Shown here piece after piece: positions 5,846 to 33,407 of a DNA stretch of 64,000 nt. The DNA is from Patescibacteria group bacterium (lineage in GTDB: Bacteria > Patescibacteriota > Minisyncoccia > Minisyncoccales > JAHCRE01): NCBI GenBank assembly GCA_020148145.1, contig JAHCRE010000016.1, forward strand, positions 164,827 to 228,826, in the 5' to 3' direction. Every line of letters starts with the position of its first letter. The stretch's first letter is position 1. Position numbers and translations under genes: made by a program. A model generated the notes under the pieces. The model worked only from the letters and a program-made list of their open reading frames with translations, was not told where the DNA came from and searched no databases.

Positions 5846-6595
5846 TTATTTCCATTTACGAATTGCAGTTTCATAACGCTCGAAAGTTCCTGTGTCCATC
5901 CATTTACCATTAAATTTAAAACCTGTTAATTTTTTTTCTTTGGCTAATTTTGGGAAAAGGTCTTTTTCAATCATTGAAAACTTGGGGCCAGGATGATAAT
6001 TGAAAATTTCAGGGGAAAGTAAATAAAGACCAGAAGAAATATATTGAGTCGTGGATTTCTTGCCCGCCCAAGTTTTCTTTAAAATTTGGGCGGGTGAAGG
6101 TTTTTCTAAAAACTCTTGAACTAAACCATTTTTGCAAATAACAACTCCATAATCTTGAGGATTTGGAACTTTCACTAAAGCTATGGTTGCCGGGGTTTTC
6201 TTTTTTTGATGGAAATTTTTCATTTCAAATAATTTTATCTTTTTTAACTCATCACCATTAGTAAAAAAGAATGGTTCGGCGGGCTCACCACTAGGTGACC
6301 CTTTAGAAAGCCAATCTTTTAAATAAAAAAGGCCTCCAAAAGTTCCCAGAGGCTTTTTTTCTTCAAATATCTTAATTTTTTCTTTAGGATAATATCTTTT
6401 TTTCCACCAATCAAAATCTTCCCGGAAATCTCTATTAATTAAAATAGCTATTTTTTTTATTCCGTAAGAATGAAAGAGGTCAACCAAATGATTTAAAATG
6501 GGTTTTCTTTTTATTGGCAAAAGGGGTTTTGGTAACTCTTTAGTTATTGGATAAAGTCGAGATCCCGCCCCTCCGGCCAAGATTACTGCTTTCAT
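5846..6595 (-). CDS. Sugar-phosphate nucleotidyltransferase (glucose-1-P thymidylyl/uridylyl-transferase-like)
   Basis: MKAVILAGGAGSRLYPITKELPKPLLPI is the canonical NTP-transferase N-terminus. The track ORF carries a 20-aa N-terminal extension up to 6655. Confidence 0.8.
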   Translation of the reverse strand: MKAVILAGGAGSRLYPITKELPKPLLPIKRKPILNHLVDLFHSYGIKKIAILINRDFREDFDWWKKRYYPKEKIKIFEEKKPLGTFGGLFYLKDWLSKGSPSGEPAEPFFFTNGDELKKIKLFEMKNFHQKKKTPATIALVKVPNPQDYGVVICKNGLVQEFLEKPSPAQILKKTWAGKKSTTQYISSGLYLLSPEIFNYHPGPKFSMIEKDLFPKLAKEKKLTGFKFNGKWMDTGTFERYETAIRKWK

Positions 6596-6692
6596 CGACC
6601 GGAGCTCTACTCTGGTAGAGTGTAGGTCATAATTAGATAATCTAGTTTTTTTCATTTGTCTTTTTTACTTTTTCTTTATAATATAAAATTGT

Positions 6693-9014
6693 ATGAAAAT
6701 CAAGGGCTCTAAATTAAGATGGATCTATTTGATTGGTTTTTTCTTGATTTTGATTTTACCTTTATTTAATATTCCGCCCTGGCTTTCTCCACCTGCCTTT
6801 GGGAAAACTGTTATATTTAGAATCATCCTGTCTTTAATTATTTTTCTATTTTTGTGGAATTTTTTCTTTTCAGAAGAACGAAAACTGTTCTCAAATCTTT
6901 ATTTTCTGCGGGGTAAATCAAGACTCACTTTTTATCTTTTAATTGCCCTATTTTTAATTTTTCTTCTAGCTACTATTTTTTCTTTAGACCGGCATTTTAG
7001 CTTTTGGGGATCTCCTTATAGGGCAGGTGGTTTTCTAAATTTTGCTTTTTATTTAATCTTTGGAGTCTTAGCTTTTTTAACTGTTCACAAAAAGGACTGG
7101 CAAAAAATCTGGAATTTCGCCTTAATTATTGGTGTTTTAGTTTCAATTATTGCCATTTTACAACAATTTGAACTATTTAGTAAAATTTTAATTCCTTATA
7201 CCTACCGTCCTGTTTCCACCCTCGGAAATCCAATCTTCTTAGCAATTTATCTATTGCTTCTTAGTTTCTTAGCTTTGACCTTTGGGATTCAGGAAAAAAG
7301 TTTTAAAAAACGGTTTTTTTATTTTTCTGTCCTGGCCTTAATGCTCTATGCAATTTTAATAACTGAAACTAGAGCTACCTATCTTGGCTTGGCGGTTGGG
7401 ATTCTATATTTTATTCTCTTTTATCCAAGAAGGTTATTCTGGCTAAAAATTTCTTTTTTTATTCTTTTTGTTTTAGGGATTCTTGGGTTCTATTTTTTAA
7501 AAACTAATCCCGATATTTTTGCAACTCAAAATTATGTTCTCCAAAGAATTATTGACAGAATTTCGAGTATCTCTATAAGTGCCGGCGAGGGTAGAATTTC
7601 TGGCTGGAAAGTTTCTCTTAAAGCGATAAAAGAAAGACCAATTCTTGGCTGGGGACCAGAAAATTTCTCAATAGGTTTTGATAAATACTATGACCCTTCT
7701 CTCCCCGAAATAGTTTCCTCTTTCGGGGGTGGCTGGTGGGATAGAGCCCATAGTTTCATTTTTGACATAAGTATCTCGGCCGGAATTCCAGCCTTAATAA
7801 TTTATCTTTCTATTTTTGCTGCTTTATTTTTGGGATTACAAAAGGTTAAAAAAAAGAGGCCCGACAAAGAATCCCTAATTTGTCATGGCGTCCAAGCCAC
7901 TTTTTTAGCTTATCTTACGGCTAACTTTTTTAGTTTTGACACTTTTTCAACTTATCTTATTTCATTTTTACTCATCGGCTATTCTTTACACTTAACTTCG
8001 TTAAATACAACTGAAGAAGCGTTAAAGACTACACCAAGAGATGATGCGCCTTTGTTTAAACTGCCTTATAGAATTTCTAAGTGGCGAGGAATTATAATAT
8101 TTCTTCTCTTTGTGGGCTTGGTGTGGTTTATTTATTTTTACAATATAAGGCCAGTTCAAATTAATAAAGAAATAAACTGGGCTGGTCATTATTCAGAACA
8201 TACATATAAAGGCTTTAATAAAGCTTCGGCAAAAATAGAAAAAGTCTTACCCTCTCATAGTTTCTTAGACCATTATCTAAAACTGCAATATAGTGATATA
8301 ATTGCCAAGGGCATAAAAGAAGAACCAGAAAGAAAATTAGAGCTCGCCCAAAAAATAATTCCAATTCTAAAAGAAGCTGTGAAAATAAGGCCTTATTATA
8401 CCAGAGATTGGATTTTTCTGGCAAGTTATACAAACATCTTGATTGAGAAAAGTCGAGCTCTTAATCCTGGGGCTATTGAAAGATTAAAAGATGAGGCAAA
8501 TTATTATTTAAAAAAGGCTCACCAGTTAAGTCCAAAACGACAAGAAATTTTTTCTGAATGGATAAAGACTGACCTTTTAACTGATGAATATCAAAAGGCA
8601 AAAGAAAAAGCTCAACAATGCATTGACTTAAACCCTGAAATGGCTAAGTGTTGGTGGTTAAAAGGTTTGGCTCATCGTTACGCCGGTGAAGAAAAAGAGG
8701 CCAGGGAAAATATAGAAAAAGCGGTGGAAAAAGGATACGATATCAATTCAAAATCTTCTCTTTTACAATTGGCTACAGTATATGGAAAAATGGTTGAAAG
8801 TTCTGGGGATCTTAAATATTATCAGATTTTATCTGATACTTACCAAAAATTAATAAATATTGAACCTAAAAATTTTCAATATCATGCATCTTTGGCTTAT
8901 ATTTATAAAATGTTAGGCGATTATGAAAAAGCTCGCCAGGAAGCAGAAATAGTGCTTAAACTTTCACCTGAATCAAAAGAAAATGTGGAAGAGTTCTTGA
9001 GAAGCCTGAGATAA
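6693..9014 (+). CDS. O-antigen ligase/polymerase-like (Wzy_C) membrane protein with a C-terminal TPR repeat domain
   Basis: About 10 TM helices in the first ~420 aa, then TPR-like repeats (WWLKGLAHRYAGEEKEARENIEKAVEKG, YHASLAYIYKMLGDYEKARQ). Confidence 0.65.
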   Translation: MKIKGSKLRWIYLIGFFLILILPLFNIPPWLSPPAFGKTVIFRIILSLIIFLFLWNFFFSEERKLFSNLYFLRGKSRLTFYLLIALFLIFLLATIFSLDRHFSFWGSPYRAGGFLNFAFYLIFGVLAFLTVHKKDWQKIWNFALIIGVLVSIIAILQQFELFSKILIPYTYRPVSTLGNPIFLAIYLLLLSFLALTFGIQEKSFKKRFFYFSVLALMLYAILITETRATYLGLAVGILYFILFYPRRLFWLKISFFILFVLGILGFYFLKTNPDIFATQNYVLQRIIDRISSISISAGEGRISGWKVSLKAIKERPILGWGPENFSIGFDKYYDPSLPEIVSSFGGGWWDRAHSFIFDISISAGIPALIIYLSIFAALFLGLQKVKKKRPDKESLICHGVQATFLAYLTANFFSFDTFSTYLISFLLIGYSLHLTSLNTTEEALKTTPRDDAPLFKLPYRISKWRGIIIFLLFVGLVWFIYFYNIRPVQINKEINWAGHYSEHTYKGFNKASAKIEKVLPSHSFLDHYLKLQYSDIIAKGIKEEPERKLELAQKIIPILKEAVKIRPYYTRDWIFLASYTNILIEKSRALNPGAIERLKDEANYYLKKAHQLSPKRQEIFSEWIKTDLLTDEYQKAKEKAQQCIDLNPEMAKCWWLKGLAHRYAGEEKEARENIEKAVEKGYDINSKSSLLQLATVYGKMVESSGDLKYYQILSDTYQKLINIEPKNFQYHASLAYIYKMLGDYEKARQEAEIVLKLSPESKENVEEFLRSLR

Positions 9015-9185: not shown

Positions 9186-12100
9186 TTACTCAGGATTGAC
9201 GAATGAACCTGCGAAAATATCGCCACGGAAGACGATTACACCTTCAGAAAGATTTCCTTCACCATCAATACCAAACTTACAATTAGCGTTATTACCATCA
9301 TCTAACCAGAGTTGAAGAGTATCACCATTGGCTTCAAAGTCAGTGGTATCACCGTAAACTTTCAGTTGCTTGGTTAGACCAGCAGGAACAGTAAAAGCAT
9401 TAGTGGAACCAGTATTATCCTCAAAGAGGAAAGTTACACTACCACTAGTATTCAACTGGTCATCCTCTACAGTAACTGAAGAAAGCTGAGTACCATCTCC
9501 ATCCTTCAAATACCAAGTACTAGAGCTTCCATCACTATTGGATGCATAAGCATTAATCTGTACGATTAGCTGATTTGAATCAGTATCTTCAAAGGTAATA
9601 TCCTCAGTATCTTCAGCAGTTACGTCAAAGGTAGCCAATAAGGTCTGTGAGCTAGGTATCAAGTTACCGGAAGGTGAAGCAGAGTTAACAGCAAAGTATG
9701 GCCTGCTTTCGAAGGCATACATCGTATTACCAGCAACACTATCATCTGAATTGGCTTCTGCACCTGAGGCTAAACCAGTGGATTCAATGATATAAGTGCT
9801 TCCATCAAAACCTACTTGAACGTCACCGTCGTCAGTCAAGGTTAAACCATAACCAACTTGGTTCAGCAAACCTTTCACCGTAAGTTCAACATGGCCGTTA
9901 GCTGGAACAGTTACTGTACCATCACTAATAGCTACATAATTAGTTGTGCCTCCCTGAGCTGTCTGAATTGGAGTATCAGCTGAAACTCCATCAGAACGAG
10001 CACTGCTGTAGAAGTAGTAAGTATTTACATAATTACCACCTGTAACACTGATATATATACTATCCAAATCTAGGTCTTCTATCTCGGTAGCAGCTAACCT
10101 AAAGACAGCCAAAGTAGATGTCTTTTGACCAATGATTATGTCAGAAGTAGGCGAAGAAGCATCCTTAGTAACGGTTAATTCACCACTGGCTTTTACGGTC
10201 ATTCCCTGACCAGGACCAGATGGAGTAACAGTAATACTCGCTCCAGTGTCAGCACCTGTAGCTGTTACAGCAGAAATGTCAATCGTGTGAATATCATCAG
10301 TGGTTGCCCCAGTAGAAAGATCACCAACAAAGGCAATCTTTATATAGGTTCCTTTTGGAACAGTAATGGTCTGAGTTAAACTGAAAGCTTGGGAACCACT
10401 ACCAGCGGCTGTTGGGAACTCTGTGTCACTAACTTTGGTTTCATAGATGTCGCCTCTTGCACTATTCTCTGTAGTTAAATCAGCCCAGATTTCGCAGTTA
10501 TCAATATCAACAAATCCTCCTGTGCCAGTCCCTGTTCTGGTGTCAGTAACTGTTATGGAAGTAACATTGACATCTTCACCAGAGGTACCAGCACTGAGAG
10601 AACCAGTCATCCAAACAAAATCATGGATACCTTTGGCCACATTTCTAGCTTGTGGCTCGGTCAAAGTGGTAGCTAGCAAGGCTCCGGCAGCTACTGTCTG
10701 ACGATTTCCCTCAATCGCAGTAGTAGGTGATGGGGTTATTGACTCATTAGTGGTCATTCCCTTAGCCGTAATGTCAGAGTCAGGAGTGTCAATACCAGTT
10801 TCTACATAGTCATCAGTTTCGCAGGCAGAGGCAATCTTTGCCTTTACTGTATATTGGTGAGTACCAACTGGAACAATAAAGGTGTCAGTGAAGTCTACAT
10901 CATTAGTATCAGCAGCGTCTTTGGGTCCACAAACAATGCCTCCATCTTCATCATAAACTTTTATATTGGTCAACTCGTCATAAGTCATACTACCAAAATC
11001 AAAGTCAATATGAAGGGCTGAAATCTTAACTTCCTCACCCCGAGCATAAAAGTCAAAAACAGTCAATTCCTGATCACTAGATGGAGCAATATTACCTGTA
11101 GCTGGAGTGTCTGCTGATATGGAAATAGTCAAGGATCCTTCCTGGATGTTTTGGTCAGTTCCTTTACCAGTTCCTGTACCTAGCCAAGTACCGCTGGAAG
11201 GAGTGATATAAAAGCCGTAGGTGTTACCCTTCACGGTCATTAAAACATCACTGCCATCAACTAAGTCAGCATTAATAGTTAGACCAGAACCACCAACTAT
11301 ATCTAACATCACCTTGAACCTATGGGTTTCTCCTTTGTCAACCACAATGTCTAAATCGGGCCAACTGGCTTTACCTTCTGAATTCCAGCTAGCAACGGTA
11401 CCTAAGCTCTTGCTGTCGGTGACACTGTAGAGTTCAATGTCAGTGGTATCATCCAAAGCAGCAGTTCCAGCTTCCATCACGGTAATTTGCTCAATAGTGA
11501 TGGCTTCCGTTGAACCTGCACTTACTTTAAAGGCAAGTACCTTAACATCGGTATCTCCAATATCTGGTGTGGAATCAACAGTAGTCTCTTCATCTACATC
11601 GGCTGAACCAATAGTTATGCTTACAAAAGTCATTGTATTCCCAGTTACTGGGAAACTACCAGTAATCTCTGAAGCATCAGAAGTTATGTCGTCAGCTGAA
11701 CCAATACCCAAAGCTGCTGTGTTACCAGCAGGAGCAGTAGTAGTAGACTCAACGACTCCAGCTCTAATGTAAAAACTCCTACTTGTTCCGGCTGAAATTA
11801 CTAAATTCGGAACAAAAGTAATCATTGCTCGGTTATCAACATTCAAGCTGCCAAGACTACCGTGATAAACCCCGGTACTAACATCAACAATTTTAATGTT
11901 CTCTATGGCAGAATTAGATGATAAACCTGAGCGAGTTACATAGATCTTGGAGATAGAAACATCCCCTTCAGAACCAGCTGTCAGAGTAAACTTAGTGAAG
12001 TTGGCATTGGCGTTATTAGCCACACTGGCTGCAGCTGAAGTGTCAGCAGCTAAAGCAACACCCAAACCAGCAGCAACTGGAGGAACTTCCTCTTTAACAC

Positions 12101-12780: not shown

Positions 12781-13500
12781 TTATTCCTGTGGATAACTCA
12801 AGAACAGGATTTTTTCAAGGGCCTGCCCAAAATCTCCGACTTCAGAATCTTCTTTCGCTTCTTCAAAAAGTTTTAGCTGTTCATCGGTTAAAGTCTGATT
12901 TTCCAAATCCTTAATAAGAAGTTCAGCTATTGGTTCATATAGATCTTCTGGCTCTCTATCTTCACCAATTACTATTCCATGAGATTTTAAATTTTGAATA
13001 TTTCCTTCTAATTTTTTAATCTCAGGAACTATTTTCCGAGCCTCTTCGGGTTCTCTTATTTTAGCTAAATTTTTAGCCGCCTCGGAGACATTGGCCTGAT
13101 ACTCTTCAATGGCTGGAGCCAATTTTTTAATCTGGTTTGTTTCAGTAATTCTGATTAATTCCTCTAATCTTTTGTTGGCAAATTCAAGTTGAACTCTTGG
13201 TTTTTCCTCTCGGGAAACAAAAATTGCCCGGGTTTTTTCAGCAATCTTTTTTAGAGGGAAAATAAAGTCACCGGGCAAAGAATTTTTGGCAAAAACAAAA
13301 GTTCCAATTAAAACTCCCAGAACAACCAAAGTAGCCAAGGCAGGTTTGTATTGAGCCCCCCACCTTAGAAAAACAGAGAACAGTTCTCTGTAACTTGGCT
13401 GTTCGCCTAAAATTTCCTTTTTAGTCAAAACAACCCAGTCTTTTCTGGGTCGAATCTGGCGAAGTTTTCGAATTTTGCCAATGAGTTCTTTTTCAGTCAT
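12781..13500 (-). CDS. Membrane-anchored DUF5667-like protein, putative anti-sigma factor
   Basis: MTEKELIGKIRKLRQIRPRKDWVVL N-terminus, one TM, helical C-terminal domain; located immediately downstream of the ECF sigma factor gene. Confidence 0.45.
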   Translation of the reverse strand: MTEKELIGKIRKLRQIRPRKDWVVLTKKEILGEQPSYRELFSVFLRWGAQYKPALATLVVLGVLIGTFVFAKNSLPGDFIFPLKKIAEKTRAIFVSREEKPRVQLEFANKRLEELIRITETNQIKKLAPAIEEYQANVSEAAKNLAKIREPEEARKIVPEIKKLEGNIQNLKSHGIVIGEDREPEDLYEPIAELLIKDLENQTLTDEQLKLFEEAKEDSEVGDFGQALEKILFLSYPQE

Positions 13501-13537
13501 CCTAATAAGTATGACGGAAAAAATAGCCCTTTTATTA

Positions 13538-13566
13538 CACCCCGTTAGAAAATTTTTCTAACGGGG
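13538..13566. repeat. Intact perfect palindrome ccccgttagaaaatttttctaacgggg; the same 13-nt half-sites flank the GIY-YIG gene at 4385/4717
   Basis: Direct reading of the sequence; 10-bp arms plus an A/T centre. Related half-sites gtttctaacggtcg and gtttctaatggtcg also occur in repeats R1 and R2. Confidence 0.8.
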
Positions 13567-13675
13567 TTACAGTAAATTTACCCGGTAGAGCAACTTCGAC
13601 TTTCCCTTCCCAATAATTCTTGAATTCTCAGTCATACTTTGTGTTTTTCTTTTAGAAAAACACCTGTCGAAGTTG

Positions 13676-14176
13676 TCATACTGGGTTTAACTTATTTTTT
13701 AGGGCTTTTAAGGCCCGGTGGAGCATCACTCTCACCGCTCCTTCCGATTTATCTAGGATTTTAGCAATCTCTGGGATAGATAAATCATCTAAATACCGAT
13801 AAATAATCACATCTTGGTAGTCCTCTTTTAGGTTAGCAAGAACCAGCCTGATCTGTTTAAGATCCGAGTTTAAGTAAGCTTCTTCTTCCAGATTTACCCG
13901 AGGATCAATTATTCGGATATTTTCAGTCGAAACTATCCGGGCTTTGTCTCTTTCTCGATAAAAATCAACTATCAAATTCCGGGCAATTTGATATAAGAAG
14001 GCTGGTGGGTTTTCAATTTCCCTTTGATTTTTAAAGGCCCTCCAGCCCCGTAAAAAGGTCTCCGAACATAAATCTTCGGCGATTTCCTGAGAACTCACCT
14101 TCAAAAAAATAAAACGATATATTTTATTTATATACTCGTCATATATCTTACTGAAAATTTTCCGTGAATTTGCCAT
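13676..14176 (-). CDS. ECF-type RNA polymerase sigma-70 family factor
   Basis: Region 2 (FLYQIARNLIVDFYRERDK) and region 4 HTH (IPEIAKILDKSEGAVRVMLHRALKALK); 166 aa. Confidence 0.8.
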   Translation of the reverse strand: MANSRKIFSKIYDEYINKIYRFIFLKVSSQEIAEDLCSETFLRGWRAFKNQREIENPPAFLYQIARNLIVDFYRERDKARIVSTENIRIIDPRVNLEEEAYLNSDLKQIRLVLANLKEDYQDVIIYRYLDDLSIPEIAKILDKSEGAVRVMLHRALKALKNKLNPV

Positions 14177-14203
14177 AACATTAGGTTAGGACATAATGTC
14201 CTA

Positions 14204-14806
14204 TCATTGTCCGAACTCATACATATATCTATCCTCCCCTTTTAGTCGATAAAAAGTATAGTTTCTCTCCCCTATTCTTTCAATTAAGCCTTGCTCTAAA
14301 AGAGAACGGAAATCTCTTCTTAAAGTTCTCTTGCTTACATCAGGAAAAACTTGAACCAACTCCCCAACCTGCACTTTTCCCCTTTCTTTTAGAATCGCCA
14401 AGATTTTTTGATGTCTACCAGAAACCTCCGGAGGAAGGCTTATTTCTGGACTAACTTTTTCTTCTTTAAATGTTTCTTTTTTTTCTGCTTCTTTCAACTT
14501 TTCTATTTCACCCCCTATCTTACTATATTCTTCCTGAACCTCCAAGATGTCATAGGGGCTGACCCAATTTTGGGCCTTAGCTACTTCAAGAAAACTATCT
14601 AAAATTTCGAGATTTCTTCCGGTTTCAGCGATTAAATTTTTAGGACTATGAGAATCACCCCTAAGAATTGAAATTAAATTGGCTAAAATTTCATCAGCCA
14701 ATCCTCTTACTTTATACCTCAAAGCTTCTTTTTTAGGAAAGAGTAAAGTTAGCCGATAAAGATTTGATGTAAGTTGGATAAAATATTCTTTATCCATAAT
14801 CCACAA
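14204..14806 (-). CDS. Transcriptional regulator: N-terminal four-helix-bundle-like domain plus C-terminal DeoR-type winged HTH
   Basis: The C-terminus HQKILAILKERGKVQVGELVQVFPDVSKRTLRRDFRSLLEQGLIER is a DeoR-like HTH. Confidence 0.5.
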   Translation of the reverse strand: MWIMDKEYFIQLTSNLYRLTLLFPKKEALRYKVRGLADEILANLISILRGDSHSPKNLIAETGRNLEILDSFLEVAKAQNWVSPYDILEVQEEYSKIGGEIEKLKEAEKKETFKEEKVSPEISLPPEVSGRHQKILAILKERGKVQVGELVQVFPDVSKRTLRRDFRSLLEQGLIERIGERNYTFYRLKGEDRYMYEFGQ

Positions 14807-14850
14807 TTAACAGTTTAAAATACTATACCAAAAGTCGCTCCGCTTTTCCA

Positions 14851-15030
14851 GCCCAGAGGGCTGGCCCCCGCCCTTTAGAAGAAAGGGCGGGGTTCGCTCC
14901 GCTCTTTAGACACCTCTCGGTTTCTAACGGTCGCCTAGGACGACCTGTTTTCCTACACAGAGCGATACCCAATCTCCCCGACCCCCTCTGTGCTTTTTGC
15001 TAAAATAAATTTTACCAAAAATAAAAACCT
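14851..15030. repeat. R1: ~175-bp GC-rich structured repeat, 98% identical to R2
   Basis: Near-identical to 16281-16465. Contains the hairpins ccagccc/gggctgg and ccccgcccttt...aaagggcgggg, a gtttctaacgg half-site and a terminator-like cacagag...ctctgtgcttttt. Confidence 0.85.
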
Positions 15031-15257
15031 GTTGCAACAGAACTTTGCAACAGAACTTTAATTTCTCACTTCGCTCGAAATTAAAAAAAGAGGTCAAAAT
15101 ACTCTACAAGTATGGTAGTAGTCACCCTAAAATCACTACAACCACCGCGCCTCTTATGTTTCTTTGTTCCACGGCTTACTTTCTCGTCTTTGCGAATTGC
15201 ACGGTGAAGGAGGTCAAAAAATTCCTTCTTTTGTGGGTGTTCCTGTTTCATAAATAA

Positions 15258-15800
15258 TTACTCTTTTATTTCAGGATGCGTGCCTAAATAATAATCTCTT
15301 AGGGGTATAGCACCCGCTCTTAAAATTTGTCCAAAATCTATTCCTTTATTGAAGGCATAAGTTTTTATCGAGGCAAATGGTTCATAATCTACTAAACTAT
15401 CCATTAAGCTTCTCGCATTTTCTTGAATATCATATTTTGTTTTATTAGGATACACTGATAATTTTCTTGCAAGATTATCTTTTTCTCTTTCAAAAATATC
15501 ATCAAAACCACTTTCTCTTAATAAAGTTTTACCGAACTCTGTAAGGGTCAATCGGCTACCTGTTTTATAAATTTTACTATCTATAAATTTCTGAGCATTA
15601 ACCTTAAACTCTAATAATTTATCTACATCACTTCTTAATTTTTCAATTTTAGTGCAAGCTTTATCTTTTTCTTGAATCAAATTATCCACCTTTTCTTTAT
15701 ATCTTCCTATAGTAATAGAGGCGGTGATTGCTCCTATAACTGCCGCGATAATTAAATTTATTATAAAAATTATTATTATTACCAAAGTATCTGAAATCAT
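15258..15800 (-). CDS. Hypothetical membrane-anchored protein (N-terminal TM, coiled coil)
   Basis: 180-aa ORF between R1 and R2; no recognisable domain. Confidence 0.4.
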   Translation of the reverse strand: MISDTLVIIIIFIINLIIAAVIGAITASITIGRYKEKVDNLIQEKDKACTKIEKLRSDVDKLLEFKVNAQKFIDSKIYKTGSRLTLTEFGKTLLRESGFDDIFEREKDNLARKLSVYPNKTKYDIQENARSLMDSLVDYEPFASIKTYAFNKGIDFGQILRAGAIPLRDYYLGTHPEIKE

Positions 15801-15913
15801 AATGGCTTTGTTTTTATTTTAGTCTATTATACCTACATCTTAACAAATATCAAAAAAGTTGTTAAGGTGCAAATATAAAGGTCGAATTATAAATAATAAT
15901 CTTTAAAAGTAAT

Positions 15914-16195
15914 ATGAATAGAAAAATCCCCCCTATAGCTAAAAGTTTTACTCTACGTCAATTCACTATTATAAAACCCACAAATCAGAAGATGGTTGAT
16001 GTAAGATTTTTTGATGGTAAAAACCCTTTTAAATCAAAATGTATAGGCGGTATCTCGCTCTCACCTCAACTCTTTATCTCCTTTATCAGTATGTTTCTGA
16101 AGTTTTCTAAAGAAAATCGGGCATTCTTTGAAGGTGTAAAAGTTCCAAGAGATTTAGGCAAACTTTCCAGCCCTGACGAATTCCCTTCTGAATAA
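15914..16195 (+). CDS. Hypothetical protein
   Basis: 93-aa ORF on the plus strand between R1 and R2; weak support. Confidence 0.2.
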   Translation: MNRKIPPIAKSFTLRQFTIIKPTNQKMVDVRFFDGKNPFKSKCIGGISLSPQLFISFISMFLKFSKENRAFFEGVKVPRDLGKLSSPDEFPSE

Positions 16196-16280
16196 GAAGT
16201 TAGGTGCTTTTCATTGCCTAAATATATTTGATTTTTGAGTGTTTTTTTTCATAATTTTTACTTGTTGTGAAGATATACTC

Positions 16281-16465
16281 GCCAGAGGGCTGGCCCCCGC
16301 CCTTTTGAAGAAAGGGCGGGGTTCGCTCCGCTCTTTAGACACCTCTCGGTTTCTAATGGTCGCCTAGGACGACCTGTTTTCCTACACAGAGCGATACCCA
16401 ATCTCCCCGACCCCCTCTGTGCTTTTTGCTAAAATAAATTTTACCAAAAAATAAAAAAGAGGTCA
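16281..16465. repeat. R2: second copy of the ~175-bp GC-rich structured repeat
   Basis: See R1; differs from R1 at only 3-4 positions. Confidence 0.85.
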
Positions 16466-16821
16466 AAACACCTTTTTCAACAAGGTAACAGTCACCTTTC
16501 AGTTTAATAGCAAAATTGGATTTGGCACGATTTTGATCAAATTAGCTTCAAATTTTAACAGGGTGACAGTCACCTAGTCAGTGGCAACTAATCACCGAGA
16601 AATATTGTTCCTTCTTCCCCATCTTGGTGTCCTACTCCTCCCTGAGCCTGGATGATTCCTTGAAAATCGCTGGATTGGTAATAAATCGCAATCCTTCCGC
16701 CGAATCGTGGACGACATTAGAACCTATTGGATGATTGCGAAAGAGGTTGTTTCTATACCAAATTATAGTTAGTGAGGTGAGGGACGGACGATGTTAGAAC
16801 CTGTTTGGTTCGGTAAAAGTT

Positions 16822-17328
16822 TTAATCTTTCCGTCCCACAACTATATAAACCGTGTCTGCTTGTAGTGATCCTCCGATTGAACTTGGTTTAACCTCACCA
16901 GAACGCAAGTCTATACCAACTTCGTTAAAGGTTTGACTAATTAAATTTACAACTGAATCCATATTTTTTCCTGTTACAAAAATCTTAAGAAAACCTGTAT
17001 AGTCATTTAAAGAAGTTTGATTTGTTGGAAGGACATTCCATCCAGCATCTTTAAACACCGAAGCAATCTCCTCTGCAAAATCTAAACTCTCTCCGTCCAA
17101 AAGACGACTTACCAGACCTACTTTACCTTTCTTTTTTGATAAGGTAACGGTAAGCTGATTTTTTTGACTAATTGATAAATGTCTTGGTTGAACTTTTTTT
17201 AGTTCTTGTTGAAATTCTTTTTCTATCTTTTTATTAATATAAATCTGACCAATTGTTCCAATTGCTGAAAGAATTATCCCAAGAATTATTAATCCATTAA
17301 AGATTGTTTGGAGATTATTAGCAGTCAT
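16822..17328 (-). CDS. Hypothetical N-terminally TM-anchored protein
   Basis: 168 aa; one TM then a soluble domain; followed 3' by the motif gggacggacgatgttagaacctgtt, which also occurs at 16708 and 17363. Confidence 0.4.
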   Translation of the reverse strand: MTANNLQTIFNGLIILGIILSAIGTIGQIYINKKIEKEFQQELKKVQPRHLSISQKNQLTVTLSKKKGKVGLVSRLLDGESLDFAEEIASVFKDAGWNVLPTNQTSLNDYTGFLKIFVTGKNMDSVVNLISQTFNEVGIDLRSGEVKPSSIGGSLQADTVYIVVGRKD

Positions 17329-17431
17329 AAATTTCTTAGTTTCTTATAAAAATTTAGCGGTTCCGAGGGACGGACGACATTAGAACCTATTTTATGGCCA
17401 AAAAAAGGTTAATTAAGATACCGAGTCATAC

Positions 17432-18172
17432 TTAAAATAATCGGTCAACCATCTCAGCAGATTCATCTTGCCCTCCTTTAACTTTTATAATCATCCCGAA
17501 TGATTTATTTTTAGGCATTTTTATCCAGTTTTTAGCCAAAAACCAAGCCGCTCCGCTTGTTCCCCACTCTCCAAGACCAGCAACAGCAATCCATACCCTA
17601 TTTGGAAAATTCTTCGGTATAATCTTTATAATGAAAGCATAATCATAAGTGCCATCTATTGAGAATTTCTTTTCTTCATTTTTTTTAGTAATAATAGCCA
17701 TCTCGGGGCCACTTGCATCAAAATCATAAAACACATTCTCTTCGTTTTGTAAAACATCTTTTGTTTTTAAATTGTTTAAACCGCCAATTGAACAAAATGA
17801 TATATCTAACTTATCCTCTATTTCTTCGTCAGAAATCAACTTCGGCGAAATATGAACAATTTTCCCGAAGGTTTCGGAAAGATATTTCACAGACCTTGTT
17901 TCTGCAAAAGAAACAACCGAAGATACTCTAAAACCACTGCCAGATTTATGATAATAAGGCCATTTTCTAATATCGCCCTTTTCATCGTAACAAGGTAAAA
18001 GCCTCATTTGGCCGTAAGTTAGGATAAAATTATCTATTGAATCTTTCCCAAATACACCTTTAAAACTACATTTATAATATCTTTTTTTAATTTCTGAATA
18101 AATCCAACCAAAAACTAAAACCGCGGCACCGCCAATGATGTTGTATATAATTTGTTCCAAATGATCATTCAT
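17432..18172 (-). CDS. Hypothetical TM-anchored protein with a C-terminal glycine-rich (AVAGLGEWGTSGAAW) putative nucleotide-binding loop
   Basis: 246 aa; no confident family assignment; adjacent to the MTase-Mrr fusion gene. Confidence 0.4.
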   Translation of the reverse strand: MNDHLEQIIYNIIGGAAVLVFGWIYSEIKKRYYKCSFKGVFGKDSIDNFILTYGQMRLLPCYDEKGDIRKWPYYHKSGSGFRVSSVVSFAETRSVKYLSETFGKIVHISPKLISDEEIEDKLDISFCSIGGLNNLKTKDVLQNEENVFYDFDASGPEMAIITKKNEEKKFSIDGTYDYAFIIKIIPKNFPNRVWIAVAGLGEWGTSGAAWFLAKNWIKMPKNKSFGMIIKVKGGQDESAEMVDRLF

Positions 18173-18285
18173 AAATACTCTCTAACTTTTTTCAGTTTAT
18201 CATTTTTTATCCGAAAAACAAGCTGGTTTAAAATAAAAATTGCCCAGCGATGGGCTTTTCTGTTTTTGCTATATACTTATCTTTA

Positions 18286-19557
18286 CTACATTATCGGCTT
18301 TTTCTTTTCCAGTAAATCTTTAATCGTTATTAATTTTATCTCTAACCCTTCTTTATTTTTAATCCGCGCTGCTTCCTCATAAGCACCTTTAGTAAAACTA
18401 AAAGCTACAATATAACCCTTTTTATAGCCCGCTCTTTTAAGTGCGGTTTCAAAATTATCTACAACATTACGTCCCGCCTTATCAGATTGTTTTACTTGTA
18501 TCCCTGCTCCTTCGGGAATAAAAATATTTCCTTTAATATAATACCCATCTAATCCCATATCTCCAACTTTCTTTCTACTTGATTTTGCTCTCATCTTATC
18601 TATTATCACCCAGTTTTGAAATTCAAATGGCTCTAACTTCTTTACTTCCTTTACAGTAGTCGGCATACCAACAACAATATAATTAACGCCCTCCGTAGTT
18701 CCTAAAGTTCGTTTTAATCGTCTCTGCATTATTTTAATTGCAGTTGGTGAGATATCTATTCCTATCCACTTTCTTCCTAATCGTTGAGCTACCGCTACAG
18801 TTGTGCCACAGCCACAGAAAGCATCTAAAACTACATCGCCCTTACTTGAGGATATTTTTATTATTCTTTCCAAAAGAGCTTCTGGCTTTTGGGTAGGATA
18901 ACCTTCTCGTTCTTTAGAAGTTGGTTGTATATGCTGTATTTCCCATACATCATGCAAAGGAACCCCTACATTTTCTTTCCCCCTTTTTATGTAATTTCCC
19001 TTCTCATCCTTCAATCTCTGAAGTTTGCCATTAATAACAGCCCTAATAGTATCCTCAATTACTTCAGGTTTAGAGTAAGGCTGATACTGAATATTAAATG
19101 TATAATCTTTTGACTTCGAATAGAATAAAATTGTATCGTGCATTCTTTGATAACTTTTAGAAACATTGCTCCATCTTTTATACCACCAAATAATCTCATT
19201 CCTAAAATTCTTTTTATCAAATATTTCATCTAACATAATCCTTATATGAGCGTTAGCGTGCCAGTCGCAATGTAAATAAAAAGAACCTGTAGGTTTTAAG
19301 GCTTCATACATTACTTGGACCCTTGGTTTTAACCAACCAATATAGTGTTCTATTCCTCCTTCCCACCTATCTTTATAACTTCTAACTTCAGCCTCGTCGC
19401 CCCAGACAATTTCGTACTGTTTGTGAGTAAAAAATGGAGGGTCGATATAAATTAAATCCACGCTCTCTTTTGGGAATTTAGCTACCTCCTCTAAATTATC
19501 ACCACAAATAAGCTTATTAACTTGCCAGAGTTTATTTTGTTCCTTTTGTATAGCCAT
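18286..19557 (-). CDS. DNA methyltransferase (N6-adenine/N4-cytosine, DPPF motif IV) fused to a C-terminal Mrr-like PD-(D/E)xK restriction-endonuclease domain
   Basis: IYIDPPFF (motif IV) and FCGCGTT (motif I, beta-class order); C-terminal GDMGLDGYYIKG...IQVKQ resembles the Mrr_cat D...(E/Q)xK core. Confidence 0.7.
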   Translation of the reverse strand: MAIQKEQNKLWQVNKLICGDNLEEVAKFPKESVDLIYIDPPFFTHKQYEIVWGDEAEVRSYKDRWEGGIEHYIGWLKPRVQVMYEALKPTGSFYLHCDWHANAHIRIMLDEIFDKKNFRNEIIWWYKRWSNVSKSYQRMHDTILFYSKSKDYTFNIQYQPYSKPEVIEDTIRAVINGKLQRLKDEKGNYIKRGKENVGVPLHDVWEIQHIQPTSKEREGYPTQKPEALLERIIKISSSKGDVVLDAFCGCGTTVAVAQRLGRKWIGIDISPTAIKIMQRRLKRTLGTTEGVNYIVVGMPTTVKEVKKLEPFEFQNWVIIDKMRAKSSRKKVGDMGLDGYYIKGNIFIPEGAGIQVKQSDKAGRNVVDNFETALKRAGYKKGYIVAFSFTKGAYEEAARIKNKEGLEIKLITIKDLLEKKKPIM

Positions 19558-28860: not shown

Positions 28861-30210
28861 CTACTCTCCCGGTACGGTTTTATCGAAAAATAGTACGCCG
28901 CCACCACCTGTCCCACCGGCCACCATATAGTTTCCATCTGAAGAAATACAAGCGTGTCCCATACTCATAGGGGTAGGAATGGGAAAATCCTCGTGGGACA
29001 TTAGCAAAGTTGAATATTCCCACAAAGGAACACTGCTGTCTCTCTGAAAAAAATAACAACCAAACTCACCTACTGCCGCTATATGCTTACCATCAGCAGA
29101 AATAGCAACGGAACTAACGGTAGCTCCAGTGTTAGAATCAGAGGCATAACTCCAGAGAGGAACACTACTGTCTTTCTTGAACAAATAAACGGTGCTGCTG
29201 TTAGCCTCATCTCCGTATCTGAAAGCAGATACTGCTAAATATTTGCCATCTGAAGATAGGGATACAGAACAGTAATCACATTCTAATGGATAAGTCCAAA
29301 GCGGCGTGCCAGAATCTTTGCTAAAAAAGTACAACTTATTTGAGCTTCCTGCTGCTACATAATTACCGTCTGAAGATATGGAAATGGAATAGAGGTCAAA
29401 ATTTTTCGCTCCACCCGTTTTATAGCTCCATAAAGGCGCAGCAATTAGACCAACGGGTCTCTGACCTATGATTTCGGCATCTCTTTCGAACAAATATATC
29501 CTTTGCTGATCCGCCAAACTCGGACAAACTGCTGCCACATAATTGCCATCTGAGGATATTGATGTCTCGACTCGAGACAGGTTAAAATCAGCAAGTTCAC
29601 GGCTCCATAATATCTGGCCATCTTTTGAAACCAAAAAAAGCTCACCATAATTCTCCATACCTACTGCTATGTAATCTCCATCAGCCGAAATGGAAACAGA
29701 ACGAAGGGGAACCCACTCATCTTCCTCGAGGTCAAAAGGACGAAGGCCCTTAATCCATAAAGGAGTAGGATTATCTTTCTGAAAGAAGTAAAGCTTGCCA
29801 TCGGTAACAGCAAAAGTGCCCACTGCGATATAATTGCCATCCGGAGAAATGGAGACTGATTGGACTTCAAGGTCATCAACTTGATAATTCCACAGAGGGA
29901 TAGAACTGTCTTTTTCGAAGAAAAGAACATTGTCTGGCCCATAGGCGTCGGAAGCTCCAGCTACTATATAATTTCCATCTAAAGACATTGAGATACCACC
30001 CTCATTCAGGCCCCCATAGGCAATCCAATCCTCTGTAAAATACCACCACAACGGCTCTTTTTCAGTCTTTTTCTCAGCCTCTTCTTCAACTTTTCCGTTC
30101 GATGGAACCGCGCCTTCTTCTTCTACTTTTTTCTCCCCACATCCAGCACCTACCAAAACTAAGACAACTAAAAGTAAAAACAGAACAAAAAATTTTAACT
30201 TGTTTTTCAT
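28861..30210 (-). CDS. Lipoprotein with beta-propeller repeats (WD40-like/PD40-like blades)
   Basis: Lipobox LVGAGC, then at least 8 repeats of about 45 aa containing S(I/V)SIS(A/S)DGNY(I/V)A(A/V)G and LW(N/S)Y. Confidence 0.6.
   Translation of the reverse strand: MKNKLKFFVLFLLLVVLVLVGAGCGEKKVEEEGAVPSNGKVEEEAEKKTEKEPLWWYFTEDWIAYGGLNEGGISMSLDGNYIVAGASDAYGPDNVLFFEKDSSIPLWNYQVDDLEVQSVSISPDGNYIAVGTFAVTDGKLYFFQKDNPTPLWIKGLRPFDLEEDEWVPLRSVSISADGDYIAVGMENYGELFLVSKDGQILWSRELADFNLSRVETSISSDGNYVAAVCPSLADQQRIYLFERDAEIIGQRPVGLIAAPLWSYKTGGAKNFDLYSISISSDGNYVAAGSSNKLYFFSKDSGTPLWTYPLECDYCSVSLSSDGKYLAVSAFRYGDEANSSTVYLFKKDSSVPLWSYASDSNTGATVSSVAISADGKHIAAVGEFGCYFFQRDSSVPLWEYSTLLMSHEDFPIPTPMSMGHACISSDGNYMVAGGTGGGGVLFFDKTVPGE
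30074..30196. repeat. About 123-bp exact direct repeat, copy 1, encoding the shared lipoprotein signal peptide and linker
   Basis: Identical to 30791-30913; encodes FFVLFLLLVVLVLVGAGCGEKKVEEEGAVPSNGKVEEEAE in both genes. Confidence 0.85.
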
Positions 30211-30250: not shown

Positions 30251-30925
30251 TTAAAAAAATGGTATTTCCATTATCTGGACACCGGCTGGTAATTCAAATA
30301 TGCTATTAGAGATATCACCAAAATCTATATTCTTTATCTCTACCACAGTTGTGCCTTTAGCTGTAGTCCCTTCTGTCCTAATAGGAATTCCGTACCTTGT
30401 CCATATCCACATTTTTACCTCTTCTGTCTCAGTACTGTATTCAACAACCAGACAGGTTTTCCCATCCAGGACTTCAGTGCCAACAGTCACCGGATTATAA
30501 TCCATCACCGACTCAGATTGTTCGGTCGGAGATTCTCCAGCCGTTCCCCTGGCTTTACTCCAATCCATTTTCATAGCTATATTCTGAGCTGGAACATAGA
30601 GATACGCCAACTGCTCTCCCGCATCTAGTAGGTAGACTCCAGTATATCCTTCAAAAGTTCCCTCTACTCTCATATTTGTTCCTTTATACCATACCTTTGT
30701 TGTTATTGCTGCTTGGTCAGGAGCAGTTACTACCACATCATACTTAAGGGAGACAACATCTTTCGCCTTGTCCAAAATATCAGTTAATGATTCAGCCTCT
30801 TCTTCAACTTTTCCGTTCGATGGAACCGCGCCTTCTTCTTCTACTTTTTTCTCCCCACATCCAGCACCTACCAAAACTAAGACAACTAAAAGTAAAAACA
30901 GAACAAAAAATGCTATTTTGCGCAT
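30251..30925 (-). CDS. Lipoprotein, LolA-like/DUF4367-like fold
   Basis: Same lipoprotein leader as the upstream gene, then a beta-rich domain of about 180 aa. Confidence 0.5.
   Translation of the reverse strand: MRKIAFFVLFLLLVVLVLVGAGCGEKKVEEEGAVPSNGKVEEEAESLTDILDKAKDVVSLKYDVVVTAPDQAAITTKVWYKGTNMRVEGTFEGYTGVYLLDAGEQLAYLYVPAQNIAMKMDWSKARGTAGESPTEQSESVMDYNPVTVGTEVLDGKTCLVVEYSTETEEVKMWIWTRYGIPIRTEGTTAKGTTVVEIKNIDFGDISNSIFELPAGVQIMEIPFF
30791..30913. repeat. About 123-bp exact direct repeat, copy 2 (lipoprotein leader cassette)
   Basis: See copy 1. Confidence 0.85.
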
Positions 30926-31655: not shown

Positions 31656-32032
31656 ATGATTCCCCCAATAATCATTAAATCAGCGATATTAAAAATAGAA
31701 ATAGGCAGAAAGAAAACTTTAATCCAGTCAATCACATAGCCAAAATAAATTCTGTCAAAAAGATTGCTCAAGCCACCCAAAATAATCAAAGAAAACCCGG
31801 TTATTAAAAGAAAATCCTTTTTCTGCCAACTCCTGAAAAACAAAAAAAGAAGCAGTAATGTTACTGCTCCGATTAAAAAATAAAGTAAACTCGAATTTAG
31901 AGGAATAAAATACAATTTTGGATTTTTAAACAATAGCTCTGAATCCAAAGCTAACCATTTGGTCAATCTATCCAGAATTATTAAACCCAAAGCAAGAAAT
32001 ACTAAAAATCTTGCTCTATTTAGGTATTTCAT
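31622..32032 (-). CDS. lspA: Lipoprotein signal peptidase (signal peptidase II)
   Basis: LDRLTKWLAL...NLFDRIYFGYVIDWIKV...FNIADLMI matches the LspA conserved D/N/FNxAD boxes; overlaps lgt by 34 nt. Confidence 0.75.
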   Translation of the reverse strand: MKYLNRARFLVFLALGLIILDRLTKWLALDSELLFKNPKLYFIPLNSSLLYFLIGAVTLLLLFLFFRSWQKKDFLLITGFSLIILGGLSNLFDRIYFGYVIDWIKVFFLPISIFNIADLMIIGGIICLIFRLAKSR

Positions 32033-32042
32033 CTTCAGGCAT

Positions 32043-33407
32043 TTACTCGCCTTCAGGCGGTTTCTCTTCTAGTAATTGTTTACAAGCTGGTTCCTGAGGA
32101 TTTTGAGTGCAATATTGTTTGCATTCCTCAGGACTAGTGCATTTCCCTTCTAATTCTGGAGGTATTACCATTTCTGGAGGCTTTCCTTCTGGAGGTTTAT
32201 ATTCGCCTTCAGGCGGTTTCTCTTCTAGTAATTGTTTACAAGCTGGTTCCTGAGGATTTTGAGTGCAATATTGTTTGCATTCCTCAGGGCTAGTGCATTT
32301 CCCTTCTAATTCTGGAGGTATTACCATTTCTGGAGGCTTTCCTTCTGGAGGCATGCCCTCTGGAGGTAGTCCCATCTCACCTTCTGAAGGCTTTGGCATA
32401 TATTTTTCAAAACAATTCTTTATTTTCTCACCAACCTCAGGACTAGGCATAAAGGTACCAGTTTGAATTTTCTCCAAAACTTCTTCTCCTACGGTTGACT
32501 TTATACATTCTAAAACTTCTGGTGGCGCTTGCTTTAATCCCTCCTGTAATTGCTGTATGCCTTCTTTCGTTTTCTGAATTTCTTCCTCAGGAATTAAATC
32601 GTGCTCCTTGGCAAAATTAAAACAAACTTCTTGATTAGCCGGGTTGTTGCAAAAAGCCTCACATTCTTCTTTACTCTGACAACCACCTGGTCCTTGGCCA
32701 CCGGTTTTTAAAAACATTTCTTTCTCCTCTGGCGTCATTAATCCAGCTTTAGAGGCAAAATCAGCACATTCTTGAAAATGAATCTTTTGAGCACAGTAAG
32801 CCTCGCATTCCTCTTTAGTCTGACAGCCGCCGGGACTTTCTCCTTTTGCCATTAAAGACACTGTTTTCTTTCCCCGGCTGCACTCTGCTGAAGATAGTAT
32901 TCCTATCTTACAAGCATAGGAGAAGCATTCTCCCATATGATCCGGCTGTGAGCAGTAGGCATCACACTTTTTTTTGGTTCTACAGTCTCCCGGAAAAGGA
33001 ATTCCAGCCAGCATAGCCTTTCTTACCAGCCTCGCTTCTGCTGCTTCGAATGGAGGTATAAGTCCGGCTTTCTCAGCAAAATCTATACATTCTTCTATTT
33101 TGGTCGGCTCTTCGCAATAAGCCTCACATTGAGTCGGGTTTGAGCATCCGCCGGGCGGCACTGCCCCCTCAGCCAAGGCTTTCATCATTTTTTTAGCTTC
33201 TGCTAATTCTTCCGGCGACAATAAGTTGTGGGCTTCAGCAAAAGATACGCACTCTTCAATGTTTTCCCAATTATCACAATAAGCCTTACATTCTTCTTCA
33301 TTCTGACAATTTCCCAATTCTTTGACCGGAAAACTAATTTGAGCAAAAACAAAAACTCCTGCTAATAGTCCGAGAATAAAAATAACTAATAAAAATGTTT
33401 TTTGCAT
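32043..33407 (-). CDS. Secreted Cys-rich repeat protein (CxxxEECxAYC modules) with a C-terminal 52-aa tandem duplication
   Basis: Signal peptide; about 8 modules of roughly 45 aa with 4 conserved Cys; the last 52 aa are duplicated exactly. Confidence 0.5.
   Translation of the reverse strand: MQKTFLLVIFILGLLAGVFVFAQISFPVKELGNCQNEEECKAYCDNWENIEECVSFAEAHNLLSPEELAEAKKMMKALAEGAVPPGGCSNPTQCEAYCEEPTKIEECIDFAEKAGLIPPFEAAEARLVRKAMLAGIPFPGDCRTKKKCDAYCSQPDHMGECFSYACKIGILSSAECSRGKKTVSLMAKGESPGGCQTKEECEAYCAQKIHFQECADFASKAGLMTPEEKEMFLKTGGQGPGGCQSKEECEAFCNNPANQEVCFNFAKEHDLIPEEEIQKTKEGIQQLQEGLKQAPPEVLECIKSTVGEEVLEKIQTGTFMPSPEVGEKIKNCFEKYMPKPSEGEMGLPPEGMPPEGKPPEMVIPPELEGKCTSPEECKQYCTQNPQEPACKQLLEEKPPEGEYKPPEGKPPEMVIPPELEGKCTSPEECKQYCTQNPQEPACKQLLEEKPPEGE
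32048..32350. repeat. Tandem direct repeat (2 x about 156 bp) within a CDS
   Basis: cgccttcaggcggtttctcttctagtaattgtttacaagctgg... is repeated with 1-2 mismatches. Confidence 0.85.

Follow-up and report, generated by a model that had tools for sequence, protein, structure and literature searches.

The single-chain restriction-modification enzymes MmeI, BpuSI and TstI begin with a PD-ExK nuclease, continue with a gamma-class methylase and end in a recognition domain (PMC2582602, PMC3185434). Here we describe a gene for a 423-residue protein in which a beta-class DNA methyltransferase is followed by a C-terminal Mrr_cat-type nuclease domain, together with the genes downstream of it, in a 64,000-nucleotide stretch of a Patescibacteria group bacterium (assembly GCA_020148145.1, contig JAHCRE010000016.1, positions 164,827 to 228,826; herein the window, numbered from its first letter). 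We read this fusion as a mobile, solitary, one-chain restriction-modification enzyme, and the genes of the neighboring slot as unrelated cargo that does not form one system with it; we give this reading a probability of roughly 0.6.

As in type IIC, IIG and IIL enzymes, methylation, cleavage and recognition would share one polypeptide, the gene is solitary, and recognition varies on a constant scaffold. Unlike the MmeI-type IIG/IIL enzymes, the fusion has a beta-class methylase, a presumed recognition region that is internal, and a C-terminal nuclease domain of the Mrr_cat family. Its methylase core can be aligned with those of M.RsrI, M.MboIIA, CcrM and EcoP15I Mod (Protein Data Bank [PDB] matches of E 1e-24 to 1e-11), none of which has an Mrr_cat domain. 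Type III Mod proteins partner a separate Res helicase-nuclease; no helicase gene, and hence no Res subunit, adjoins the fusion gene in the window, in the related loci L001, L003, L006 and L007 discussed below, or in phages. With E. coli Mrr and type IV Mrr_cat enzymes the fusion shares the Pfam catalytic family and the D...QxK arrangement, a variant active site that Bujnicki and Rychlewski reportedly described in a 2001 paper, which is reference 105 of PMC3424549. It is unlike E. coli Mrr in having no N-terminal modified-DNA reader: Pfam gives no Mrr_N-type (winged-helix) match on the 423-residue protein, whose N-terminal 290 residues are methyltransferase. Since the nuclease is attached to a methylase, dependence on modified DNA cannot be assumed for it.

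Three phage proteins, Streptomyces phage Ejemplo gp47, Mycobacterium phage Dori gp42 and Marinitoga phage MPV1_55, have the same two-domain architecture (N6_N4_Mtase with a C-terminal Mrr_cat/NA-iREase1 domain) and align over 96-97% of the query. They are 30-35% identical to the window protein, have a recognition region longer by 100-130 residues, and are annotated simply as "DNA methyltransferase." All lie in the lysogeny regions of temperate phages: the Ejemplo gene is two genes from a serine integrase, the Dori gene is three genes from an integrase, and MPV1_55 adjoins a CI(-like) repressor.

A methyltransferase core joined to an Mrr_cat domain

Three open reading frames (ORFs), all on the minus strand, are at issue: 18286-19557 (423 residues), 17432-18172 (246 residues) and 16822-17328 (168 residues). 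The features of the first are as follows.

18286-19557, minus strand: 423-residue beta-class N6/N4 DNA methyltransferase with a C-terminal Mrr_cat PD-(D/E)xK domain (ORF, Pfam, PADLOC)
19432-19443, minus strand: methyltransferase motif IV, DPPF, residues 39-42 (translation, homolog alignments)
18952-19185, minus strand: hypervariable central region, residues 125-202, presumed target-recognition domain (regional identity, alignment)
18799-18819, minus strand: methyltransferase motif I, FCGCGTT, residues 247-253, S-adenosylmethionine-binding loop (translation, alignment)
18307-18636, minus strand: Mrr_cat-type nuclease domain, residues 308-417, containing E312, GDMGLDG (18544-18564) and IQVKQ (18487-18501) (Pfam, conservation)

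The Pfam family N6_N4_Mtase (PF01555) covers residues 33-278 (E 4.3e-57) and scores 194 bits, where the curated threshold is 26.7. Mrr_cat (PF04471) covers residues 308-417 (E 2.3e-8) and scores 34.6 bits, where the threshold is 21; this match takes in positions 4-113 of a profile of 115. The best PADLOC model is MTase_II, a type II methyltransferase (E 1.9e-88); MTase_III also matched. Motif IV (DPPF) stands N-terminal to motif I (FCGCGTT) with a variable region in between, which is the circularly permuted order of the beta class. Pfam and the translation thus bear out what an earlier note on this DNA, made from the letters and their translations, had recognized: a beta-class core with DPPF before FCGCGTT, and a C-terminal Mrr_cat-like domain with GDMGLDG and QVKQ. 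By domain content, with both catalytic domains intact in one chain, the protein is type IIC in the broad sense of restriction and modification in one polypeptide.

The family is very large. An identical protein is present in NCBI, on a 281-kb contig, under the name "restriction endonuclease [Patescibacteria group bacterium]," and at least 8000 homologs were found at E≤1e-3; the best 120 of these, at 61-93% identity, all extend over the full length with both Pfam domains, the named organisms among them being Patescibacteria (Parcubacteria, Pacebacteria), Omnitrophica, Stahlbacteria and Proteobacteria. Loss of the catalytic D/E/K residues, which the earlier note had named among the grounds for refuting it, is not seen: 34 aligned homologs of 61-93% identity show no change at E312, D333, G335, D337, G338, Q354 or K356, nor in the DPPF and FCGCGT(T) motifs, and the catalytic residues are mostly kept in 66 viral homologs as well (D337 in 63 of 66, K356 in 56 of 64; at position 354, 48 have Q, 9 have S and 3 have E). 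DPPF is kept in 83 of 83 phage and viral homologs. Even at ∼30% identity the phage homologs conserve D333, G335, D337, G338, V355 and K356; an acidic residue at 312 together with D333, D337 and K356 is retained from 93% to about 30% identity. Mean identity to the window protein is 0.81 for the N-terminal part of the core, 0.76 for the C-terminal part of the methylase core and 0.74 for the Mrr domain, and only 0.34 for residues 125-202. Beta-class methylases hold their recognition region at the matching position. To judge from these alignments, a constant scaffold with a replaceable recognition region has the look of enzymes pressed to change specificity.

The architecture is mobile and is not tied to a partner. 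Besides the three phages, plasmids of Rhizobium, Microbacterium, Megaera and others carry it, and among the 80 best IMG/VR loci at least 62 do. No neighbor is conserved over 69 full-length fusion loci, where the largest clusters of neighbors comprise four loci (phage repressor/capsid genes, unannotated ORFs). As no gene is conserved beside the fusion across these 69 loci, we conclude that the fusion gene works alone.

In the mechanism that we propose, recognition of a short DNA site would fall to the central variable region; the host's copies of that site would be marked by the methylase core, probably as N6-methyladenine given the D-P-P-F motif, which points to adenine-N6 methylation; and the tethered Mrr-type nuclease would cut DNA whose sites are unmarked, so that cleavage would depend on methylation state. 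A single-polypeptide enzyme of modification plus cleavage remains plausible because the catalytic-type residues of the C-terminal domain are retained.

Several observations weigh against this mechanism. The layout of known one-chain restriction-modification enzymes differs from that of the fusion, and the Mrr-like domain found no meaningful match among PDB sequences, either as a single sequence or as a profile. The Ejemplo, Dori and Marinitoga phage proteins match not only Mrr_cat but also PF22722, whose name denotes an inactive restriction-endonuclease domain (NA-iREase1), and the phage-borne copies could be anti-restriction methylases instead of restriction enzymes. The replacement of Q354 by S in nine viral homologs points the same way, and the literature yielded neither a paper on an N6_N4_Mtase and Mrr_cat fusion nor a biochemical study of the family. 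These observations meet in a rival explanation: a solitary methyltransferase, of the orphan or phage anti-restriction kind, whose Mrr-fold C-terminal domain serves only in DNA binding or oligomerization and does not cut. In its favor, phages often have this architecture, and phage methylases mostly stand alone; the fusion has no conserved partner gene; PF22722 outscores Mrr_cat in two of the three phage homologs; and CcrM, which has an extra C-terminal DNA-binding segment in a comparable arrangement, is among the closest solved methylases. We nevertheless regard this explanation as rather unlikely. Retention of D333, D337, K356 and an acidic residue at 312 down to ∼30% identity is unexpected for a purely structural domain; the window protein itself matches Mrr_cat and has no PF22722 match at E≤0.1; and a hypervariable target-recognition domain on a conserved scaffold fits arms-race switching of specificity better than a regulatory methylase.

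Two candidate precedents were rejected, HVO_A0006 as a fragment of a gamma-type IIG enzyme and Panchino gp28 as type I-like; the latter is a known phage single-subunit system and is described as type I-like (PMC12487901). A 2026 survey of methyltransferases of the candidate phyla radiation does not mention such fusions. The one-chain restriction-modification reading concerns an architecture that is abundant and already annotated in databases, of which the window copy is one more member, and whose family is strongly conserved and present in cultured actinophages. If the fusion is a one-chain restriction enzyme, a beta-class methylase with a C-terminal Mrr-type nuclease would be a layout not among the characterized ones, and its swappable recognition region could supply new specificities. 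Patescibacteria depend heavily on restriction-type defense.

Two families of small membrane-anchored proteins

The two genes directly downstream of the fusion encode the following proteins.

17432-18172, minus strand: 246-residue protein with an N-terminal transmembrane helix (18095-18151) and a conserved, probably cytoplasmic alpha/beta domain with glycine-rich loops (17543-17587)
16822-17328, minus strand: 168-residue protein with an N-terminal transmembrane helix (17260-17316) and a conserved C-terminal domain (16828-17187)

That both are membrane-anchored proteins free of assignable domains, as first noted from the translations, holds: each has one N-terminal hydrophobic helix (residues 8-26 and 5-23, respectively), and no Pfam, NCBIfam or PADLOC family scores above threshold. 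The positive-inside rule would put the globular domain of the 246-residue protein in the cytoplasm. A search returned 174 homologs of this protein, none with a Pfam family for the conserved domain; species representatives come from at least 10 phyla (Patescibacteria, Bacteroidota, Desulfobacterota, Acidobacteriota, Chloroflexota, Nitrospirota, Planctomycetota, Verrucomicrobiota and others), and identity between phyla is often 40-60%. Invariant positions are D115, G130, N134, G199, E202, G204, G207, W216 and D236. The glycine-rich loop reported earlier (AVAGLGEWGTSGAAW, 17543-17587) is present and is the most conserved part of the family. In the AlphaFold2 model (predicted local distance difference test [pLDDT] 94; predicted template modeling score 0.88), GGxxNxKT and AGLGEWGTSGA each appear to follow a beta-strand and to open a helix, as phosphate-binding loops do.

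Foldseek comparison of this model with the PDB gave no fold match (best E 5.7e-3, template modeling score 0.33; BcsB and glycosidase accessory domains), and the family profile found nothing meaningful among PDB sequences. The 168-residue model, at pLDDT 97, likewise has no significant PDB neighbor by Foldseek, and Foldseek brought up none of the SLOG, TIR or nuclease folds once suggested for the two proteins. Nor is the 168-residue gene an orphan, as had been thought: a word-indexed search returned only the protein itself, and full phmmer returned 270 relatives, 92 of them at E≤1e-10. The conserved unit of this second family is the C-terminal ∼120 residues (R49, D78, E80, G165 and others), and most members have one or two N-terminal transmembrane helices. 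A PADLOC "2TM effector" match of the 168-residue protein was set aside as noise (E 2e-4, matched by 1 of 70 family members). Profile-profile comparison gave no relation between the families. They are two different, widely and patchily distributed families, and independent cargo.

In rare relatives the transmembrane helix gives way to another module. In 2 of 65 members of the 246-residue family it is replaced by a CAP12/Pycsar-type TIR domain (E 1e-31), and a 690-residue ORF on a Desulfobulbia contig (L027, 436-2508) carries Trypsin_2 and TPR repeats before the family domain. A relative of the 168-residue protein, P0297, has an HNH-like nuclease segment in place of the helix, which matches the N termini of PADLOC PDC-M68A, CBASS endonuclease effectors and SduA (E 1e-30 to 4e-17). 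Because TIR, trypsin-TPR or HNH segments stand in for the helix, both families suggest stand-alone proteins of conflict or abortive-infection type, in which a cytoplasmic C-terminal domain may control an N-terminal effector. The pattern of the 246-residue family fits a stand-alone, horizontally moving protein of this design. The exchange of an N-terminal transmembrane helix for a CAP12/Pycsar-type TIR domain before a conserved C-terminal domain is also seen in CBASS, Pycsar and Thoeris effectors. Unlike those systems, the 246-residue family has no cyclase or other signal-producing gene nearby: neighbor clusters and a Pfam census of 150 flanking proteins gave no conserved neighbor and no CD-NTase, pyrimidine cyclase or ThsB. 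Its C-terminal domain also differs from theirs in lacking any SAVED, STING, cNMP-binding or SLOG match by model or structure; across 65 members, no ligand-sensor family of Pfam or PADLOC (these four and Macro) matched it.

The alternative is that both are ordinary membrane-anchored accessory or envelope proteins that have no conflict role, the TIR, protease and HNH fusions being incidental. The genes around the 246-residue family are mostly metabolic or housekeeping and not defense genes, the family was not found in IMG/VR, and no PADLOC model matches the 246-residue protein; moreover, the fusions are few (TIR in 2 of 65, trypsin-TPR at one locus, 2 of 70 in the 168-residue family). Because of the housekeeping neighbors and the absence from IMG/VR we hold a conflict role for the 246-residue family loosely, and the lack of a defense-island context keeps our confidence in a defense role low. 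Even so, that the proteins are ordinary seems to us the less probable account, and on several grounds an unlikely one: patchy spread over at least 10 phyla at 40-60% identity indicates horizontal transfer, the only recurrent neighbor of the 246-residue family is a tyrosine integrase (4 of ∼40 loci), each domain that takes the place of the helix is a typical immune effector module, and the slot that contains the genes has different contents in near-identical backbones. With confident predicted structures, no fold match and interchangeable N-terminal effector domains, the small families are cheap candidates for defense screens.

A slot of variable gene content and its repeated intergenic elements

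Between the methylase and a cluster of HTH_DeoR, extracytoplasmic-function (ECF) sigma and DUF5667 genes lies a slot whose gene content differs completely even between close relatives. In the window it appears to hold three separately transcribed, membrane-anchored genes (246, 168 and 180 residues), laid out with the intergenic elements as follows (the 246- and 168-residue genes are given above).

18192-18262, minus strand: junction of the methylase and 246-residue genes, a terminator-like hairpin (18242-18255) with a T-run, then a promoter-like stretch (hairpin search, sequence)
17365-17392, minus strand: 28-nucleotide (nt) motif copy 1, core AGGTTCTAATGTCGTCC (gene strand), between the 246- and 168-residue genes
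16779-16806, minus strand: 28-nt motif copy 2, directly 3' of the 168-residue gene
16702-16729, minus strand: 28-nt motif copy 3, which resembles the L001 copy (3' part diverged)
16282-16456, minus strand: 175-nt repeat copy 2, a promoter and structured RNA-like element (98% identical to 14853-15027)
15258-15800, minus strand: 180-residue membrane-anchored protein, within a 1.25-kb segment flanked by both 175-nt repeats (segment not in L001)
14853-15027, minus strand: 175-nt repeat copy 1, immediately upstream of the HTH_DeoR gene
12781-14806, minus strand: conserved syntenic anchor, HTH_DeoR (14204-14806), ECF-type sigma-70 (13676-14176) and DUF5667 (12781-13500) (Pfam; order in L001 and L006)

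The closest relative found, L001 (GCA_974434335.1), has a methylase gene of 91% nucleotide and 93% protein identity and retains the downstream HTH_DeoR, ECF-type sigma-70, DUF5667 and a large PG_binding protein; between methylase and anchor it has genes of 169, 183, 243 and 387 residues, dissimilar to the 246-, 168- and 180-residue genes of the window. L006, with a methylase 70% identical, shows the same synteny and yet another gene set (114, 78 and 195 residues). L003 has a further different downstream set, and a serine recombinase upstream of the methylase; by eye, the first two genes after its methylase-Mrr gene (6416-7105; 120 and 105 residues) look HicB/HicA-like, a pair in keeping with an accessory-gene slot.

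Linkage of the small genes to the methylase in other genomes, which the earlier note had made a test of its reading, was not found beyond one case. The fusion lies within 6 kb of a relative of the 246-residue gene in 0 of 47 species-representative genome loci; the fusion or the 246-residue gene lies near a 168-residue relative in 0 of 13 metagenome loci (this search used the closer alignment A6, A3 and A5 being too divergent for search patterns); and either small gene is present in 0 of 80 viral methylase loci. The sole exception, which tells against our reading of the slot as unrelated cargo, is L007 (GCA_004196315.1), where 24 bp separate the gene for a 54%-identical homolog of the 246-residue protein from a 67%-identical fusion; the pair is convergent (tail-to-tail), and the fusion is inside an element with a serine recombinase and a ParB-methylase. 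In the window, the intergenic gaps are 113 nt (methylase to 246-residue gene) and 103 nt (246- to 168-residue gene), and a hairpin with a T-run is predicted after the methylase stop and a promoter-like stretch before the 246-residue start.

A defense module of methylase, 246-residue and 168-residue genes is accordingly not supported, since it fails on linkage. That the methylase-nuclease and two membrane-anchored genes form one three-gene defense operon, as the earlier note proposed, is highly improbable: the genes are adjacent on the same strand in the window genome and two of them adjoin in L007, but the L007 pair is not co-oriented, the closest relative has the same methylase with wholly different downstream genes, no co-occurrence appears in 47 + 13 + 80 further loci, gaps of ∼100 nt and a terminator-like hairpin between the first two genes separate the genes in the window, and each small family is found alone in many phyla. 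Of the proposed restriction/defense module, then, the reading of the fusion survives as reasonable, although for a common and already annotated family, and the three-gene arrangement does not.

The slot is marked by repeated intergenic sequences of three kinds. A junction element (AGCCCATCGCTGGGCAATTTTTATTTT...TTGTTTTT...TGATAA) occurs four times in L001 (5905-5932, 7300-7343, 7939-8002 and 8579-8623): after the methylase, between the 169- and 183-residue genes, between the 183- and 243-residue genes and, in a partial copy of 28 nt, upstream of the methylase. Its appearance is that of an inter-cassette sequence held in common. The second kind is the recurring 3' motif that the earlier note had seen in the window, which proves real, with three 28-nt matches against 0 expected in 100 shuffles. 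Its core, AGGTTCTAAYRTCGTCC, is also found in four other Patescibacteria-type contigs: L001 (2705 and 3514; one exact, one degenerate), L003 (7144 and 9486, likewise among the genes that follow the methylase), L015 from Portnoybacteria (4759) and an IMG/VR contig, L075 (14724), where it lies ∼100 nt from the contig end. These copies are all intergenic, point the same way as the genes and come right after a T-run; most exact matches in IMG/VR are one unrelated coding sequence.

Known classes of element were considered for the 28-nt motif and do not fit. A tRNA end or att site is not supported, as no tRNA or Rfam match lies near any copy; the motif is not an Rfam family, and it has the wrong geometry for a promoter and no stable hairpin; nor does it fit an integron attC, being a direct repeat with no evident palindromic arms. 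Pfam found no integrase among the window genes scanned, and an integron cassette array is not indicated.

The third kind, the 175-nt element, comprises a TTGACC-17-TAAAAT promoter and then a ∼130-nt RNA-like fold that ends in a GC-rich terminator hairpin (z-score -3.47), and it matches no Rfam family. In L001 it is single-copy (10715-10945), directly upstream of HTH_DeoR, and at two hairpin positions the hairpin has another sequence there. The element may act in the HTH_DeoR/ECF-sigma operon as a leader or small RNA not described before.

Taken together, the repeats suggest that repeated intergenic sequences are sites of exchange for unrelated genes. We put forward, as a speculative model in which our confidence is low, a Patescibacteria-specific hot spot of cassette exchange (junction, 28-nt and 175-nt elements) whose 246-residue and perhaps 168-residue genes encode new single-gene immune proteins. 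At the repeated elements, near-identical backbones would trade single genes that are unrelated to one another; in the proteins, a cytoplasmic domain with nucleotide-loop-like glycine motifs would trigger an N-terminal effector (transmembrane helix, TIR, protease or HNH). A fast-changing slot beside a conserved chromosomal position offers a handle on the uptake of accessory genes by the tiny genomes of Patescibacteria.

Other features of the window

The minus strand carries 51 of the 55 window ORFs of at least 120 residues, and all but two of the plus-strand ORFs of that size overlap longer minus-strand ORFs. GC skew is negative in nearly all 1-kb bins, and the cumulative skew drops with no lasting reversal over the 64 kb. 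Neither Rfam at the gathering threshold nor ARAGORN found RNA genes in the whole window, and a permissive Rfam scan of 14700-17500 gave chance-level matches only.

Genes for HtrA, ClpB and Trypsin_2 lie directly upstream of the methylase in L006, and their orthologs are at 41.7-46.6 kb in the window, ∼22 kb from the methylase (19600-41700, compared with 1-5000 in L006). The intervening stretch contains small orphan genes, PKD and beta-propeller proteins, and other large unannotated proteins; the difference may reflect an insertion in the window genome or a deletion in L006.

Further intergenic direct repeats are found at 28631-28691/35067-35127, 23821-23867/27334-27380 and 21983-22055/28707-28779. 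One such pair contains a string like a tRNA T-arm, GGACTCGAACCC, although ARAGORN predicts no tRNA across the 64 kb; the repeats may derive from former att sites or make up a family of intergenic elements. Within coding sequence, a 156-nt tandem repeat of 93% identity lies inside a 454-residue gene (32022-32333), and a 129-nt repeat of 97% identity (30074-30202 and 30792-30920) is common to adjacent genes of 449 and 224 residues; both repeats suggest repeat-containing surface proteins.

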